Assembly: GCA_041664925.1 (NCBI GenBank)
Contig: JBAYJV010000003.1
Location: forward strand, 21,179-85,178
DNA: 64,000 bases
Source: Minisyncoccota bacterium
GTDB taxonomy: Bacteria; Patescibacteriota; Minisyncoccia; JBAYJV01
Direction of reading: 5' to 3'
Position 1 is the stretch's first letter, and the number at the start of each line of letters is the position of its first letter. Positions 12,910 through 59,725 of the stretch are shown here, piece by piece. A program made the translations under genes and the position numbers. The notes beneath the pieces were generated by a model. That model made no database searches. It was not told where the DNA came from and saw only the letters and a program-made list of their open reading frames with translations.

Positions 12910-13176
12910 GTTATTTAATAAAACAGATATTGATATTTTATCATTAAACCATTTTTAAGTCCAAAAGGCTTGTAAAAAACACGCAAACCATTGATTTTTA
13001 ATAAGTTATGTGGTATAATGTAGAAAAGAAGGTAGTTGAGTGTAGAATGAGGTAGTCCCGCACCAGAGCCCTGACACCAGAATAAATTCGGTGCATGGCA
13101 AGCAAAGCACGGTGCGGGATGTAAGAGTTTCTAAGCTCACTTCATTCGCGAAGAATCTCTAACAGAGGAGGCGACT

Positions 13177-13296
13177 ATGAAAGAGGTTTGTAACTATCAC
13201 GAGACAGTTCCAGCGGAAGTGAGGCGGGAAGTTGAAGAGAGTCTGGTTGATGAAATTGACCCGACTCGTGAAGACAACGACGATCTCGGGCTGTAA
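13177..13296 (+). CDS. small ORF, 39 aa, acidic
   Basis: GGAGG RBS 7 nt upstream. Preceded by a copy of the conserved GTAAGAG leader element. Confidence 0.3.
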   Translation: MKEVCNYHETVPAEVRREVEESLVDEIDPTREDNDDLGL

Positions 13297-13645
13297 AGAG
13301 ATCAAAAGAATGTCCGCCTTCGCTTTTGGCTACGGCGAGACTTAAGATTTCGTACTGCTCACAGGTTCGCAAACGAAATCTAAAGGAGGTAGGATAGGTC
13401 TTGGAGATTGGATTATCATCGGAGGGTTCGTTGCGTTCGTCGCATTTCTCGTGATCATGCTTCGGAGACCGAAGCTGAGAGGAGTGAGGAGTCGTCGAAC
13501 CAAGGCGGGGTAGATTACCCCGCCCTTTTTGTTTTACAAACTTATCAACTTTAAAAACCGCTCTTGTATTTATATTTTCAAGGGTTTAACATTAAAGTGT
13601 AAAATGTAATTTGTTATTTATTATAAAAAGAAAGGAATTAAAAAT

Positions 13646-14077
13646 ATGTCAATTGGCGAACCAGGAGAACCACAACCAAACGTAGAATTTGATCCGGAAA
13701 AACATGTAAAAATTCCTGAAGAGGAAGGCGGAGGTTTTGTTAAAAAAGAAGCATATGAAACACAAGAGTTAGCAAAACTTTCTGCAACTTACGCTAAAGC
13801 CCTAGAAAGACAACAAGAGATTACGGGGAAGGAAACTAATTTCCAAGATATATTACATAATGAGGCAAATAAAGAAAACAAAGAAAGTGATTTATCAGAA
13901 GAAGAGAAGCTCATAGAAAGAGTTAAGGATGGTAGAGCTAATTATCGAGACTTGCCAGAATATCAAAGGAGAAACCTTAAGGTTATACAAGTAGCCTTAG
14001 AACGAAATGCAAGATTCATTAACTTTGTTCCAGATGATATTAGGGAAAAAATAGAAAAAGGAACACAAGGATTGTAA
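13646..14077 (+). CDS. hypothetical acidic protein
   Basis: 143-aa ORF with an AAGGAA RBS. Confidence 0.4.
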   Translation: MSIGEPGEPQPNVEFDPEKHVKIPEEEGGGFVKKEAYETQELAKLSATYAKALERQQEITGKETNFQDILHNEANKENKESDLSEEEKLIERVKDGRANYRDLPEYQRRNLKVIQVALERNARFINFVPDDIREKIEKGTQGL

Positions 14078-14268
14078 AAATTTGATATTTTTCCGTTTTT
14101 AATTTTGAAAAAGCAGAAAAAACTGAAGAGAAATAATGATTTTTAATATTTATAAGAACTCTAATGTAATCCTTCAATTGCACTCAGGATATAAGGTTTC
14201 TATTTCTCGCTTATAGCTCGAAAAGAAATTCTAATAAAAGAGCGCGGAGTCTTTCCGCGCTGTTTTGT

Positions 14269-14664
14269 TTAGACCACTTTTTGGTCTTCTTTTTTGCTAT
14301 CAGGGTAGAAATTGTAGAGGATTCCTGCAATGATAAGCGAAGCAAAGAACCCACAGAAAGCAACCTTAAATACAACAACAGGAAGTCCATCATACCGACA
14401 ACTAAACCAATTAGTACCAATCATGATTATTCCAAAAATCACAAATCCAGATAAACTTACTTTCGCTCCTTTATTCTTCAAAACAGTATCAATGATACTC
14501 AGGAAGAACAATAACACATAAATTGAATTTAACGCATAGATGCCGTCAAATGACTTGTTGGGAGATCCGTTAAAAGAAATAAACCCTGCAATGAGGATGC
14601 CAACTATGAAAAAAAAAGCATTGTACTTGCAAACCACTCTAATGACTTTTCTCAAAGAACTCAC
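14269..14664 (-). CDS. hypothetical membrane protein
   Basis: Four predicted TM segments. Confidence 0.35.
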   Translation of the reverse strand: MSSLRKVIRVVCKYNAFFFIVGILIAGFISFNGSPNKSFDGIYALNSIYVLLFFLSIIDTVLKNKGAKVSLSGFVIFGIIMIGTNWFSCRYDGLPVVVFKVAFCGFFASLIIAGILYNFYPDSKKEDQKVV

Positions 14665-14899
14665 CTCCCTAGGTTAATTTAATTGTAACTCTTATAGACA
14701 AAAAATCAATATAAAACAATAAATTTGACTTATCGTCTTTTTTTAAATATGCAAGGCAATTTAAAACATTGACAAGTAATCATGTTTATGATAGAATGGG
14801 CAACGGTTGGCAAAAGATTTGCTTTTGTCAAAGTTCTTATGACAAAAGATTGGCTTTTGTCAAAGTTCTTATAAAAATAAATAGGAAAAGGGAGGAAAA

Positions 14900-58362: not shown

Positions 58363-58650
58363 ATGATAGATGTTATTCCTGGATTGAAACTGATTAAACA
58401 CAATGCCACTGATATACATCGACCCGATGATCCTACTTTTCCGTTCAGATTGGAAGTCAGTTTTCACCCACCGCAACTTACGGATCGGACATTTGTTGGA
58501 TTATCTAGTTGTAGTGATGAGCTTATTATGCGTGGCATGACCAAAGAAGCGATAGATGAATTTGTTAGAAGAAGTGGTTTTCGAACTCATCCGCGACTTC
58601 GTCGTCTGACGATCACTGGTCCTGAGGGTGTTGTAGAACAGTTGCCCTAA
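58363..58650 (+). CDS. hypothetical protein
   Basis: 95-aa ORF with an AAGGAGATGAG RBS. Hairpin terminator at about 58655-58700. Confidence 0.3.
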   Translation: MIDVIPGLKLIKHNATDIHRPDDPTFPFRLEVSFHPPQLTDRTFVGLSSCSDELIMRGMTKEAIDEFVRRSGFRTHPRLRRLTITGPEGVVEQLP

Positions 58651-58809
58651 GGATGACAATCCATTATACTCCCTGCGGAATTCGTTAAGAACGAAAATCC
58701 AAAGGGAGTTTTTTTATTAACAAAAACTTAATCTGCTTGACTTCTTTGTCAATTATGATAGATTATCTACATGTACTTTAGTTTGATTGTTTTTTAAAAA
58801 GGAGGAAAC

Positions 58810-59139
58810 ATGGCAGAAGTCAGGCAAGTAGAATCTTTAGATGATGTTTTTCAGAGAATTTGCGATCGCATAAGATCACAATTTCAGGATAGCACTTTCC
58901 ATTTTCTTTCATTTAAAGGTTGGCGTTATTTACAAAAAAGTCATGAGTATTTTTCATTCTGGTTTATACATCTTAAAACATGGAAAACCTTAGTCGCTGT
59001 CAGGCTTGGAGATACAAATGTTGTGAAATGCGGTTGTTACGATCTATCTATTTTTCGTGTAATAGAAGAAGAAATGACCAAATACGCTGAGCAGATGGGT
59101 ATAGATAAGATCATACTTGAAAAAGTCCATGACGAATAG
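58810..59139 (+). CDS. hypothetical protein
   Basis: Shares the leader ATGTACTTTA ... TTTTAAAAAGGAGGAAA-ATG with the gene at 57551. Confidence 0.35.
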   Translation: MAEVRQVESLDDVFQRICDRIRSQFQDSTFHFLSFKGWRYLQKSHEYFSFWFIHLKTWKTLVAVRLGDTNVVKCGCYDLSIFRVIEEEMTKYAEQMGIDKIILEKVHDE

Positions 59140-59226
59140 AGAATAAATGGTGGTTAGCGCAGATGCTAGCCACTTTTTTTATAAAAAAATCCCCCGGTTA
59201 CTTACCGGGGGAGCGCCTGAGGCTAG

Positions 59227-59322
59227 CTATTGCCTCTACGGCTTTGGCTCGCCTTTCCTCCTTTGTTGCCTACGCAGAATTGGCTCGCCTTGAGGCTTTT
59301 ATTGCCTCCTGAATATTGGCTG
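59227..59322 (-). repeat. Short array (about 2.5 units) of the 36-bp repeat in inverted orientation (TTATTGCCT / TTGGCTCGCCT / TTGTTGCCT)
   Basis: The reverse complement of the AGGCAAYAA and AGGCGAGCCAA motifs that make up the large array at 60858. Confidence 0.7.
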
Positions 59323-59560
59323 TATCGAAATGTTAGTATATTGATAATAAAAAGTCAATAATTACAAAAAACTCTTGACTTTTTGACAATCTTGTCATAG
59401 GATATAGGAGTTCTTCAAAAAATGGCAGTAAACAATCCGCCTACACTAAACCTGCCTGACGCCTGCCTGTCGGCAGACGGGGCAGTCAGGGTTTCGGCGG
59501 GATGTAAGATTTCTTAATTGTTCGCCAAGCTCACAAAAGAAAACTGACAAAGGAGGCAAC

Positions 59561-59725
59561 ATGCCAAGAAAGGGAAGCGGAACGGCGGTGCTTGGTCCGG
59601 AGACTCAAGAGATTATTGATGCGGTGAAGGTTAGTCCGCTAAGCACACTCTATAATATGTTTAGAGATGTTGAGCAACTAAGAGTTCGTTATGCAACAAG
59701 ACAAACACATCTGGGAAAAAAGTAG
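59561..59725 (+). CDS. orfA of the IS110-like locus, 54 aa, ending at the slippery A_AAA_AAG followed by a TAG stop
   Basis: AAAGGAGG RBS. The heptamer A AAA AAG lies in the zero frame at about 59716-59722 and is directly followed by a stop. Confidence 0.4.
   Translation: MPRKGSGTAVLGPETQEIIDAVKVSPLSTLYNMFRDVEQLRVRYATRQTHLGKK

Follow-up and report, generated by a model that had tools for sequence, protein, structure and literature searches.

A two-hairpin module exchanged between genes immediately before the SD in a Candidatus Paceibacterota genome

A module of two hairpins, P1 and then P2 without a gap, abuts the SD of unrelated genes in a Candidatus Paceibacterota MAG (Parcubacteria, candidate phyla radiation). 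Genes may have it or lack it; where present, it is inserted after the A-rich start of a standard short leader and before the SD. Its P2 helix is maintained through compensatory changes, and at the level of DNA the module is exchanged between genes. It is not a promoter, being either served by a separate upstream promoter or located between cistrons. The function tentatively proposed here, with a probability somewhat short of even, is that of a transcribed, exchangeable leader or intercistronic RNA module that would act on mRNA stability, processing or ribosome loading. No description of the two-hairpin module was found in the literature searched, and a covariance-model search with Rfam 15 gave no match at E <= 1 over any leader copy, only two tRNAs reaching the gathering score.

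The initial annotation had listed at least nine copies of one leader family in the window (the whole stretch of DNA analysed, 64 kb), and eight of these nine (13177, 13394, 18693, 31248, 45450, 46782, 47725 and 59561) are true members that share the core (Table 1). A self-trained nhmmer model finds these at E = 1e-14 to 1e-17, and their covariance-model scores are 55-67 bits. The ninth, at 33304, has G+C-rich hairpins only, with neither core nor SD, and the supposed reverse-oriented copy consists of hairpin modules alone. Conversely, the list had missed an orphan module and a partial core. The orphan has AAAAG in place of the SD and no gene after it, and is followed by a terminator hairpin; the 3' part of the partial core recurs at 29694-29714, just before the -35 box of the paralogous cassette 29812. 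The hairpins that had been named fold as claimed, and the proposal that the similarity extends beyond the ribosome-binding site is upheld. When the SD and P1 arm columns were removed, an HMM built from metagenome copies only recovered seven of the eight window copies at E <= 3e-5, and in leave-one-out searches of the window with the SD excluded each omitted copy was found (E = 9e-7 to 0.013), with no unrelated site above it. The window copies are only 45-72% identical to one another, yet retain the helix and its base, which implies that the family is old and under selection rather than the product of a recent burst.

Table 1. Module copies, associated signals and excluded sites in the window
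Feature	Position	Strand	Description or basis
Copy 1, P1	13056..13119	+	G+C-rich hairpin TCCCGCACC...GGTGCGGGA, GGTAG just before; -29 kcal/mol, 64 nt
Copy 1, promoter	12991-13019	+	TTGATT-N17-TGTGGTATAAT
Copy 1, P2	13120..13164	+	conserved helix TGTAAGAG...CTCTAACA; covariance model 65.8 bits
Copy 1, translation signals	SD GGAGG 13167-13171; ATG 13177	+	39-aa ORF
Copy 2, intercistronic	13313..13385	+	P1 TCCGCCTTCG..CTACGGCGAGA 13313-13340, P2 13341-13385; 62.8 bits
Copy 2, translation signals	SD 13385-13389; start 13394	+	ATA is the sole in-frame start; small hydrophobic ORF
Orphan module	14170..14240	+	P1 TCCTTCAATTGCACTCAGGA, P2 TATAAGGTTTCT...AGAAATTCTAAT; 45.3 bits; outside every training set
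Copy 3	18561..18682	+	P1 nested hairpin 18561-18636; P2 18637-18682; 64 bits
Copy 3, translation signals	SD 18683-18687; ATG 18693	+	91-aa membrane protein
Partial degenerate core	31040..31079	+	directly 5' of the -35 box of cassette 31248; 27.2 bits
Copy 4	31150..31236	+	P1 31150-31189, TCCTTCGACT[GCGTCGCGTCAAACGCGAC]TCCGCTCAGGA; P2 31190-31236; 59.9 bits
Copy 4, translation signals	SD 31237-31241; ATG 31248	+	sequence
Copy 5	45366..45438	+	P1 TCCGCCTACGCC..GGCTACGGCGAGA 45366-45394; P2 45395-45438; 66.7 bits
Copy 5, translation signals	SD 45438-45442; ATG 45450	+	sequence
Copy 6	46676..46772	+	two tandem P1 hairpins, CGTAAG after each; second 46705-46724, TCCTTCGACTTCGCTCAGGA; P2 46725-46772; 64.8 bits; core identical in the orthologous contig L151
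Copy 6, translation signals	SD 46772-46776; ATG 46782	+	64 aa
Copy 7	47614..47717	+	P1 CCCTCCTTCTCCCGCC...GGGATACGGAAGGG 47614-47668; P2 47669-47717; 55 bits
Copy 7, translation signals	SD 47720-47724; ATG 47731 (likelier start) or GTG 47725	+	HAD hydrolase
Copy 8	59436..59549	+	P1 59436-59502; P2 59503 to about 59549; 58.6 bits
Copy 8, translation signals	SD 59552-59556; ATG 59561	+	54 aa
Copy 8, upstream signals	promoter 59375-59403; AGTTCTTCAAAA at 59409	+	sequence
Non-member	33150..33262	+	G+C-rich hairpin modules only, 5' of ATG 33304; no P2, no SD, no model match
Non-member	43180..43300	-	only G+C-rich hairpin modules, related to 33150-33262; no core, no model match

P1 is a variable, G+C-rich, REP-like hairpin with the closing pairs UCC/GGA, and its commonest type is UCCCGGCAAGCCGGGA. 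Its 5' flank is GTAG in eight copies, GTTG in seven and GTAA in four, together 19 of 45, an enrichment that is not universal. P2, which is A/U-rich, has a stem of approximately 12 bp. The base of this stem, 5'-YGUAAGA...UCUAACR-3', is conserved in sequence and includes one invariant A.A mismatch, while the upper stem covaries. The P2 loop varies in length from 20 to 45 nt and contains at least two YUCRC pentamers. The last pair of P2 contacts either the first base of the SD GGAGG or the base directly before it, and the start codon follows the SD after a gap of 4-8 nt. Among 42 distinct copies, 94.6% of the cells in the 12 pairs of the helix are paired, whereas sliding the 3' partners lowers this to 36-54%. 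Both sides have changed in seven of the pairs, giving 62 compensatory cells, and these levels of pairing and compensation were equalled in none of 500 shuffles. Several columns free of the search pattern also covary cleanly (7/80: CG 27, UA 12, UG 3; 14/73: GC 22, UA 20; 18/69: CG 20, GC 9, UA 7), and Copy 3 has the rare closing pair C8-G79. As G.U pairs are no commoner than A.C pairs (four of each), covariation alone cannot separate an RNA hairpin from a single-stranded-DNA hairpin.

Approximately 40 further copies are present in metagenome contigs (33-75 bits). By contrast, viral contigs contain no copies, the pattern matches there all scoring 23.5 bits or less. About 45 of 52 matches point the same way as the ORF behind them and have an SD and a start codon on their 3' side; neither reversed nor intragenic copies were found. 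As had been suggested for the window, the downstream genes are unrelated, representing at least 36 protein families (36 clusters) with no common theme. One three-gene operon, in L202, has the module in all three of its intergenic spaces and no promoter there. About five copies lack an SD or a gene behind them, and these orphans still keep the hairpin. One module abuts a tRNA-Ser starting with GGAGG instead of an ORF, a case that came from a search pattern requiring RGRRG after AAC.

The unit had originally been viewed as a portable promoter plus leader. Its portability is borne out by the swapping of modules and by the occurrence of the same TSS motif in filled and empty form: after the TSS-proximal motif AGTTCTTCAAAA there follows either an A-rich stretch, GGAGG and ATG directly, or P1 and P2 and then GGAGG. 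The module is missing from many genes that share the promoter and TSS motif, and likewise from orthologs in related genomes, which implies that it is not needed for translation. That it brings its own transcription start, however, is scarcely credible. Most copies do have a promoter somewhere upstream (Copy 5 is preceded by a promoter-like site at 45317-45345 and by AGTTCTTCAAAA at 45352), but the sigma-70-type promoters are separate from the module, with -10 boxes that end at varying distances, 39-119 nt, 5' of the core; they come from repeat families of their own, which drive module-free genes too, and intercistronic copies have no promoter (at Copy 2, the stretch from the stop codon, 13294-13296, to P1 is free of one). 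A scan gave 9 promoter-like sites, no excess over shuffled sequences (7.9 +/- 2.7), and a sigma-70 promoter element was rejected because no -35/-10 hexamers occur at a fixed position inside the unit.

Exchange is evident from comparisons between orthologs and between paralogs. Orthologous genes bear different types of P1 and P2, and at orthologous sites either the whole module or P2 only has been replaced, with the SD and CDS left in place; in the swapped pairs the SD remains with the gene, not with the module. P2 hairpins that are 91-98% identical stand before unrelated genes. The leader insertion that had been proposed in 31248 relative to its paralog 29812 is confirmed as a 56-nt P1 insertion together with 7 nt from the P2 3' strand, 29812 having neither P1 nor the P2 3' strand. 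Each nested or tandem P1 insertion is followed by a repeated YGTAAG. In comparison with MITEs, presence/absence and replacement are seen, and a repeated YGTAAG flanks inserted P1 hairpins; no clean target-site duplication was seen around a whole module, no cognate transposase was found, and no excision or insertion polymorphism of one same module was seen.

The main rival to the proposed RNA function, of low but appreciable probability, is that P1 and/or P2 are selfish, miniature REP- or MITE-like DNA moved in single-stranded form by an IS200/IS605-type (Y1, RAYT-like) transposase with a target beside GGAGG (CCTCC on the other strand). The RNA would then have no function of its own, and the hairpin would be retained for mobility or merely to spare the adjacent SD; homing beside GGAGG would automatically place the element before the SD in the orientation of the gene. 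Such mobility would fit the optional presence of the module behind one TSS motif and in paralogs, its replacement around an SD and CDS that stay in place, the near-identical P2 hairpins, the YGTAAG after each nested or tandem P1, the 5' tag, the orphans and the tRNA-Ser beginning with GGAGG, as well as the three Y1_Tnp genes within 64 kb. These genes, however, are each flanked by different palindromes of their own (D17, D8 and GGTGTTTAGGTC) rather than by P1 or P2, in which they depart from a REPtron, and the divergence of the copies within one genome leaves no cloud of identical sequences as in active REPIN populations. The lack of reversed or intragenic copies and of polymorphism for one same module also argues against it, and the tRNA was picked by a pattern that demanded its SD-like start. 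A new mobile regulatory hairpin, homing immediately 5' of GGAGG (3' of CCTCC on the other strand) and moved or exchanged as a single-stranded hairpin by HUH/Y1 (RAYT-like) enzymes, is rather unlikely. Were it correct, a tiny CPR genome would continually swap the leaders of accessory and metabolic genes, mRNA stability and translation properties would change with the leader, and the result would be a natural 'RBS-adjacent cassette exchange' system.

Two further readings, an operator and a translational switch, fare less well. It is distinctly improbable that the module is a global post-transcriptional operator, with one RNA-binding protein on the P2 base and on motifs of P1 and the P2 loop controlling translation of all leader-bearing genes, and with the non-coding array at 60856-61790 as a sponge, in the manner of CsrA and CsrB. 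The sequence conservation of the P2 base within a covarying stem, the repeated YUCRC pentamers, the position next to the SD and the enrichment in P1 of GGC[GA]AGC (13-fold over background) and CTWCG (10-fold; 22/42 leaders) would all suit a protein-binding site, and the array (approximately 900 nt, about 50 GGCGAGCC/GGCAAYAA motifs) has its own promoter, a terminal hairpin and no ORF of at least 80 aa. No candidate protein was found, however, GGC[GA]AGC is present in only 8/42 leaders and GGCAAYAA in 0/42, and the modules are optional, freely swapped and placed before genes without a common theme. The junction ARGGAUGU and the second GGA in the SD do resemble paired CsrA sites, and a long predicted RNA of repeated short motifs in the same window recalls CsrB/RsmZ, but the GGA of P1 is base-paired, the array motifs GGCGAGCC and GGCAAYAA are not GGA loops, and no CsrA gene was seen within the 64-kb window; many copies have GGAUGU where P1 meets P2, again in base-paired form, and those of the GCGAGAC type lack it. 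A translational switch is very improbable: here alternate pairing of the SD, either with the pyrimidines CUCU in the 3' strand of P2 or with a CCUCC-like 5' arm of P1, would turn translation on or off with, for example, temperature or upstream translation. Minimum-free-energy folds of single sequences, which often favour alternative pairings, do show the SD paired in several copies, to CUCU in 45450 and to the 5' arm of P1 in 13394, 18693 and 47725, but covariation backs a P2 helix that leaves the SD free but for one base, the commonest P1 has no anti-SD sequence, and in the AGAUUUU/AAAAUCU subtype the alternative pairing amounts to only about 3 bp. The SD is unpaired with a probability of 0.33 in native leaders, and shuffling the sequence upstream of it gives 0.32 (p = 0.79), a difference in neither direction; this thermodynamic test also gives no indication that the module holds the SD open.

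Under the favoured interpretation as a leader or intercistronic RNA module, the two hairpins would form a compact structured element acting in cis on its mRNA, where it would set stability and processing at the 5' end or between cistrons and the loading of ribosomes at the strong SD beside it, and the conserved base of P2 would be the likely recognition site of a trans factor, whether RNase, ribosome or regulator. The functional analogues may be Gram-positive 5' stabilisers and intercistronic REP hairpins. In the former, among them the aprE and ermC leaders, the SP82 stabiliser and the cryIIIA STAB-SD, the downstream mRNA is protected by stable structure at the 5' end and/or by a strong SD of the GGAGG type. 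Such a structure and SD are the basis of the functional model suggested for the module, but the known stabilisers are each a feature of one gene, whereas the module forms an exchangeable family of many copies that conserve the base of a helix. The MIRUs of Supply et al. 1997 are reportedly 40-100 bp long, repeated between cistrons in the orientation of the operon, and situated at the junction with the translation signals of the next cistron. The module can likewise be intercistronic, gene-oriented and at such a junction; MIRUs differ in using small overlapping ORFs and tandem copy number, whereas the module is a covarying RNA-type hairpin pair without an ORF.

REP and BIME elements, with their RAYT (Y1) transposases, include GTAG-tagged palindromic repeats (PMC3733652, PMC2817692), GTAG-tagged REPs themselves being known (PMC3733652). 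P1 resembles them as a short, G+C-rich imperfect palindrome that is multi-copy, intergenic, in part of the copies provided with a GTAG-like 5' tag, nested or in tandem, and predicted to be transcribed within mRNAs, in a genome that also has palindrome-flanked Y1_Tnp genes. Unlike them, the module is fixed in gene orientation against the SD and adds to P1 an A/U-rich hairpin whose base is conserved in sequence. Only P1 corresponds to the short G+C-rich extragenic palindrome of a REP or REPIN, and, as unrelated hairpins placed in tandem rather than two REPs in inverted orientation, P1 and P2 do not make a REPIN. Integron attC sites share with the module imperfect hairpins of 50-120 nt, conserved 7-nt ends, a variable covarying middle and a position between small same-orientation ORFs of unknown function. 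They were rejected because the end boxes are reversed (GTAAGAG...CTCTAAC in the module, RYYYAAC...GTTRRRY in attC, on either strand); moreover, the module abuts the SD on the 5' side of genes, the cassettes here have their own promoter and terminator, and Pfam scans of about 50 window ORFs revealed no integrase. A riboswitch was rejected on the basis of the single covarying helix, the variable loop and the diversity of the downstream gene clusters.

The short motifs that had been reported as shared with the repeat arrays are in part confirmed: the 17-mer CTTCGACTTCGCTCAGG recurs in the 25-bp array and in the region of the 36-nt array, but GGC[GA]AGC is confined to a minority of leaders, and AAGCTCACCATAAAYTCCACGAAG occurs only twice, at 44121 and 45091, both outside leader copies. 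The P1 hairpins and the arrays have a common motif vocabulary, yet none of the motifs is universal, so that the single repeat system or common binding protein previously envisaged is only weakly supported. The 17-mer itself is part of a motif that is widespread outside this organism, viral contigs with a GC content of 31-73% having more than 120 loci of it.

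The module, in which a variable G+C-rich hairpin (P1) is followed by an A/U-rich hairpin with a conserved base (P2), the Shine-Dalgarno (SD) sequence GGAGG and a start codon, occurs in the window as a multi-copy unit oriented with the downstream gene and abutting its SD. Eight of the nine sites listed in the initial annotation carry a shared block, evident on reading the sequence, of the form GRYNTAAGAKYTTNTAA...TTCGC/CTCAC...GYTCA...AnAAWCTCTAAC-GGAGG-N4-8-ATG. An HMM of these eight copies, named here by the positions of their start codons, recovers all of them at E = 1e-14 to 1e-17, along with one copy outside the training set. 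The supposed variant at 33304 and the reverse-oriented copy at 43180-43300 do not belong to the family, as both lack the core and have only upstream G+C-rich hairpins in common with it. The similarity is not limited to the ribosome binding site. A model built from metagenome copies alone, with the SD and P1-arm columns removed, still finds seven of the eight window copies at E <= 3e-5, while SD-free leave-one-out models within the window return every omitted copy ahead of any unrelated site, with E between 9e-7 and 0.013. The repeat family is real, statistically solid and structurally supported.

P1 varies in both sequence and length (16-100 nt), is at times nested or tandem, and is closed in almost all cases by TCC...GGA or CCC...GGG; P2 follows it directly, with a gap of 0. 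RNAalifold and direct pair counting on an alignment of 42 distinct cores identify one helix of 12 pairs, formed by columns 7-19 with 68-80, in which 94.6% of cells are paired; shifting the 3' partners by 1-3 columns lowers this to 36-54%. Changes on both sides in seven pairs give rise to 62 compensatory cells, and none of 500 shuffles reached the observed values. Several of the clean pairs sit in columns that the search pattern left free, such as 7/80 (CG 27, UA 12, UG 3), 14/73 (GC 22, UA 20) and 18/69 (CG 20, GC 9, UA 7), and all four Watson-Crick pairs are found at 8/79 among copies outside pattern selection. The abundance and diversity of the copies make this covariation unusually clean, yet it fits an RNA hairpin and a single-stranded DNA hairpin alike and cannot distinguish between them; the asymmetry of G.U versus A.C in P2, a potential discriminator, is uninformative (4 vs 4). 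The helix base (U9, A10, A11; U76, A77, A78) is fully or almost fully conserved, including its A.A mismatch, and the loop of 20-45 nt contains at least two YTCRC pentamers. Because column 80 corresponds either to the initial G of GGAGG or to the preceding A, the P2 helix ends at the SD, which is separated from the start codon by 4-8 nt. The likeness of GUAAGA to a 5' splice site and of CUCUAAC to a branch point is a coincidence, because these two strings pair with each other.

The promoter part of the proposed promoter-plus-leader unit is not supported. Promoters are separate repeat families (TTGCAT/TTGACT-N17-TGnTATAAT), with the -10 box ending 39-119 nt 5' of the core, and lead into a conserved transcript start of one of two types, AGTTCTTCAAAA or TARTGAAAGAAGGTTAGGGTT. 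Furthermore, no promoter accompanies copy 13394, which is situated between two small ORFs; in contig L202, three ORFs of 60-75 aa lie behind a single promoter, and P1, P2 and the SD make up each intergenic space. A promoter scan likewise found no excess of promoter-like sites. The module is not a promoter, and a portable promoter as the explanation of the family is extremely unlikely; its copies are located in predicted transcribed leaders and intercistronic spacers. The ORF after the intercistronic copy 13394 has a good SD and encodes a small hydrophobic peptide, IGLGDWIIIGGFVAFVAFLVIMLRRPKLRGVRSRRTKAG, with only ATA at the start-codon position; it may represent a small membrane or toxin-like peptide whose start is disabled or non-canonical. 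The accessory genes of the window are arranged as modular cassettes with near-identical promoters (CTTGCATTTT..TGTGGTATAATRG), the transcript start TARTGAAAGAAGGTTAGGGTT or AGTTCTTCAAAA, and common terminators (TGGGCGGTCAGAGGATCGCCCATCTTTTTTT, four copies in the window). These cassette blocks are missing from syntenic relatives.

The association of the leader with unrelated genes is borne out, the 47 distinct downstream proteins (median 126 aa) falling into 36 unrelated clusters. Many of these proteins have no Pfam family; those families that are present, each once, comprise GcvT, SAICAR synthetase, inositol monophosphatase, DAG-kinase-like, aminotransferase, GDPD, alpha/beta hydrolase, PRPP synthetase, HAD, HPRT, PHP and acyltransferase. 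The window itself is a bacterial chromosome segment (32-45% G+C) bearing housekeeping genes (DnaE, ThrRS, AspRS, SHMT, MiaA, ThyX, NDK, HrcA, FeFe hydrogenase and ComEC), on a contig assembled from an ENA metagenome. Its AspRS is 100% identical to an NCBI protein of 'MAG: Candidatus Paceibacterota bacterium', with farther matches in Patescibacteria/Parcubacteria. The gene backbone is common to relatives at 72-78% AspRS identity, from which the G+C-richer small-gene blocks that house most leader copies are absent. Conservation at orthologous positions is not observed: these relatives yielded one diverged copy (39 bits, in locus L238 of a 73%-AspRS relative), and the module is absent from gcvT orthologs at 57-61% identity.

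A single pattern search across metagenome contigs gave 112 loci, 36 of which hold 50 HMM matches, a figure that includes several duplicate contigs or copies not selected by the pattern. Copy-bearing loci have 35-42% G+C, and the closest named relative of one is a Parcubacteria MAG; the density is approximately one module per 5-7 kb in the window and in long related contigs. Genuine copies score 33-75 bits with the covariance model R1. A phage-borne leader can be rejected, as the same pattern found 0 loci in viral contigs with a narrower gap and, with a wider one, 32 loci that all score at chance level (<= 23.5 bits) and were used as the chance baseline. A strict pattern scan of GTDB REPRESENTATIVE genomes found nothing credible; the single match, in Mangrovivirga, is taken as chance because its score is below the model threshold. 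A known RNA family is ruled out, as no Rfam family matched the module, either at the gathering score or at E <= 1, and searches of the literature by sequence strings and by topic found no description of it. Together with the few or no copies in relatives, these results imply that the family is lineage-restricted and patchy.

At the DNA level, the module is both optional and exchangeable. Some genes have an A-rich run, GGAGG and ATG immediately after AGTTCTTCAAAA; in others, P1 and P2 come between this motif and GGAGG. The insertion proposed from the comparison of the paralogous cassettes 29812 and 31248 is upheld: their promoters are identical and their coding DNA is 89% identical, and the difference is a 56-nt stretch with P1 and seven nucleotides from the 3' strand of P2. 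Between copy 18693 and its ortholog at contig locus L234, the outer arms of P1 are identical and the SD and CDS orthologous, but the P1 interior and P2 differ, while the orthologous loci L229, L174, L182 and L131 have the same promoter, unusual SD (AGGGGG) and CDS with two different types of P1 and P2. P2 hairpins of 91-98% identity precede unrelated genes; window copies are mutually 45-72% identical. YGTAAG is repeated after inserted P1 hairpins (window 46676-46730 and 18545-18645; L202), and GTAG, GTTG or GTAA is found 5' of P1 in 19 of 45. About five copies are followed by neither SD nor gene. The only module before a non-coding gene, a case pre-selected by the search pattern, is in contig locus L147 (905-1089), where the end of the P1-P2 unit coincides with base 1 of a tRNA-Ser(GGA) gene whose acceptor stem starts with GGAGG.

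We infer that the module functions on mRNA. In the best reading, adopted tentatively, P1 would protect and delimit mRNA segments, the role of REP hairpins and 5' stem-loops elsewhere, and P2 would present the SD at the foot of its helix and offer its conserved site to a factor, be it an RNase, the ribosome or a regulator. This caution reflects the dispensability of the module, the inability of covariation to tell RNA from single-stranded DNA, and a null result for SD accessibility: the computed unpaired probability of the SD is 0.33 in native leaders vs 0.32 with the upstream sequence shuffled (p = 0.79), lending no support to the idea that the module keeps the SD accessible. The converse, a switch sequestering the SD, is very improbable. 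A selfish hairpin that homes through the action of a Y1/HUH enzyme would account for the module swaps, the orphan copies, the GTAG tags and the module at the tRNA, but seems unlikely: a cloud of identical copies is lacking, and the three Y1_Tnp genes in these 64 kb of a small CPR genome (IS200-like, 227-258 aa) are flanked by other palindromes. Each is bordered on both sides by its own, in a REPtron/TIRtron arrangement; the ATATGTGGGAGGCTGAGCCTCCCACATAT palindrome has seven window copies, in terminator-like positions. Integron attC sites were rejected, the box polarity being reversed and Pfam scans of about 50 window ORFs showing no integrase.

It is quite doubtful that the module is the operator of a global RNA-binding regulator for which the 36-nt array would be a sponge. 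Of the motifs said to be common to leaders and arrays, TCCTTCGACTTCGCTCAGGA is indeed P1 of copy 46782, the unit of the 25-bp array and present in the 36-nt array region, but GGCRAGC is found in only 8 of 42 leaders. Motif CCTTCGACTNCGCTCAGG, from P1 of one leader and the 25-bp array unit, is not specific to this organism and is present in at least 120 IMG/VR viral-contig loci (31-73% G+C). Among the matches listed, it usually forms a short, variable stem whose base covaries and whose loop, TTCGAC..GCTCAGG, is conserved, or alternatively lies inside long inverted repeats (...CTGAGCGAAGTCGAAG...CCTTCGACTTCGCTCAGGGCGAACGG); a literature search found no description of it. Both the homing hairpin and the regulator operator are compatible with the module acting on mRNA.

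The module is alike in type to REP and MITE intergenic hairpins, but differs in being fixed against the SD, in having a second conserved helix and in being exchanged between genes. CPR bacteria (Patescibacteria) are uncultivated, and to our knowledge there are almost no data on their control of gene expression. An RNA element would constitute a lineage-wide post-transcriptional signal in CPR; a homing hairpin would represent selfish DNA colonising, and then shaping, translation-initiation regions. Either way, the module is a practical marker of transcription-unit and cistron starts, and the covariance model is ready for annotating CPR genomes.

Positions of modules, repeats and neighbouring features in the window
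Feature	Position	Strand	Remarks
Orphan module	14184-14240 (covariance model); 14185-14243 (HMM)		45 bits, covariance model; outside the HMM training set
Partial copy	31040-31079		27 bits, covariance model
ORF after copy 13394	13394-13513	+	
Accessory-cassette positions	12976, 29701, 31074, 31633, 32416, 38490, 38773, 43372, 44166, 53640, 59360; 30158, 30894, 31591, 32377		
Motif CCTTCGACTNCGCTCAGG	45110-45316 (-); 46705-46724; 30993-31013; 61566-61586; 62612-62632		First entry is the 25-bp array
Y1_Tnp genes	2108-2884, 40428-41132, 55442-56125	+	
Y1_Tnp palindromes	2892-2945; 40308 and 41165; 55379 and 56085		GGTGTTTAGGTC-type; AATTTATCGAAGTCCGACTTCGATAAATT; ATATGTGGGAGGCTGAGCCTCCCACATAT
Promoter TTGACA-N16-TATAAT	60786-60813	+	5' of repeat stretch to 61790
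Periodic repeat region	60786-61790	+	
Reverse-oriented short version	59220-59320		
Second leader	32470-32560, 44220-44295	+	
tRNA-Sec-model match	56629-56707	+	
tRNA-Leu(CAA)	56521-56606		
A/T-rich periodic spacers	5314-5450, 7931-7999, 10689-10887, 11248-11331, 12097-12172, 21851-22018, 48429-48469, 53435-53501		

The periodic repeat region consists of about 900 nt after its promoter with no ORF of >= 80 aa and a 12/36-nt periodicity, in which AGGCGAGCCAA and AGGCAAYAA alternate (about 50 motifs, with variable 7-8-mer spacers) as far as a terminal hairpin, GGGGGCAGTTAAGCACTGCCCC. Its sequence suggests a non-coding RNA built from repeated sites for protein binding, and a short version of the repeats is found in reverse orientation nearby. 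A second leader of about 95 nt, GGTTGGAA..ATTCTTACTA..TCGCTG..CAGC..CGGTGRAGTACCGGAGAA..CCCGA.A.GGGAGGAAAC, has no Rfam match and precedes two ORFs without detectable similarity (BLASTP E = 1.2). Directly 3' of tRNA-Leu(CAA) there is a weak match to the tRNA-Sec model, whose 29.8 bits fall short of the gathering score, with no ARAGORN call. The spacers flanking housekeeping genes are packed with A/T-rich repeats that have periods of 7 and 14 nt (AAATTAA, AAAGTNAAAATTNA), which are separate from the leaders.
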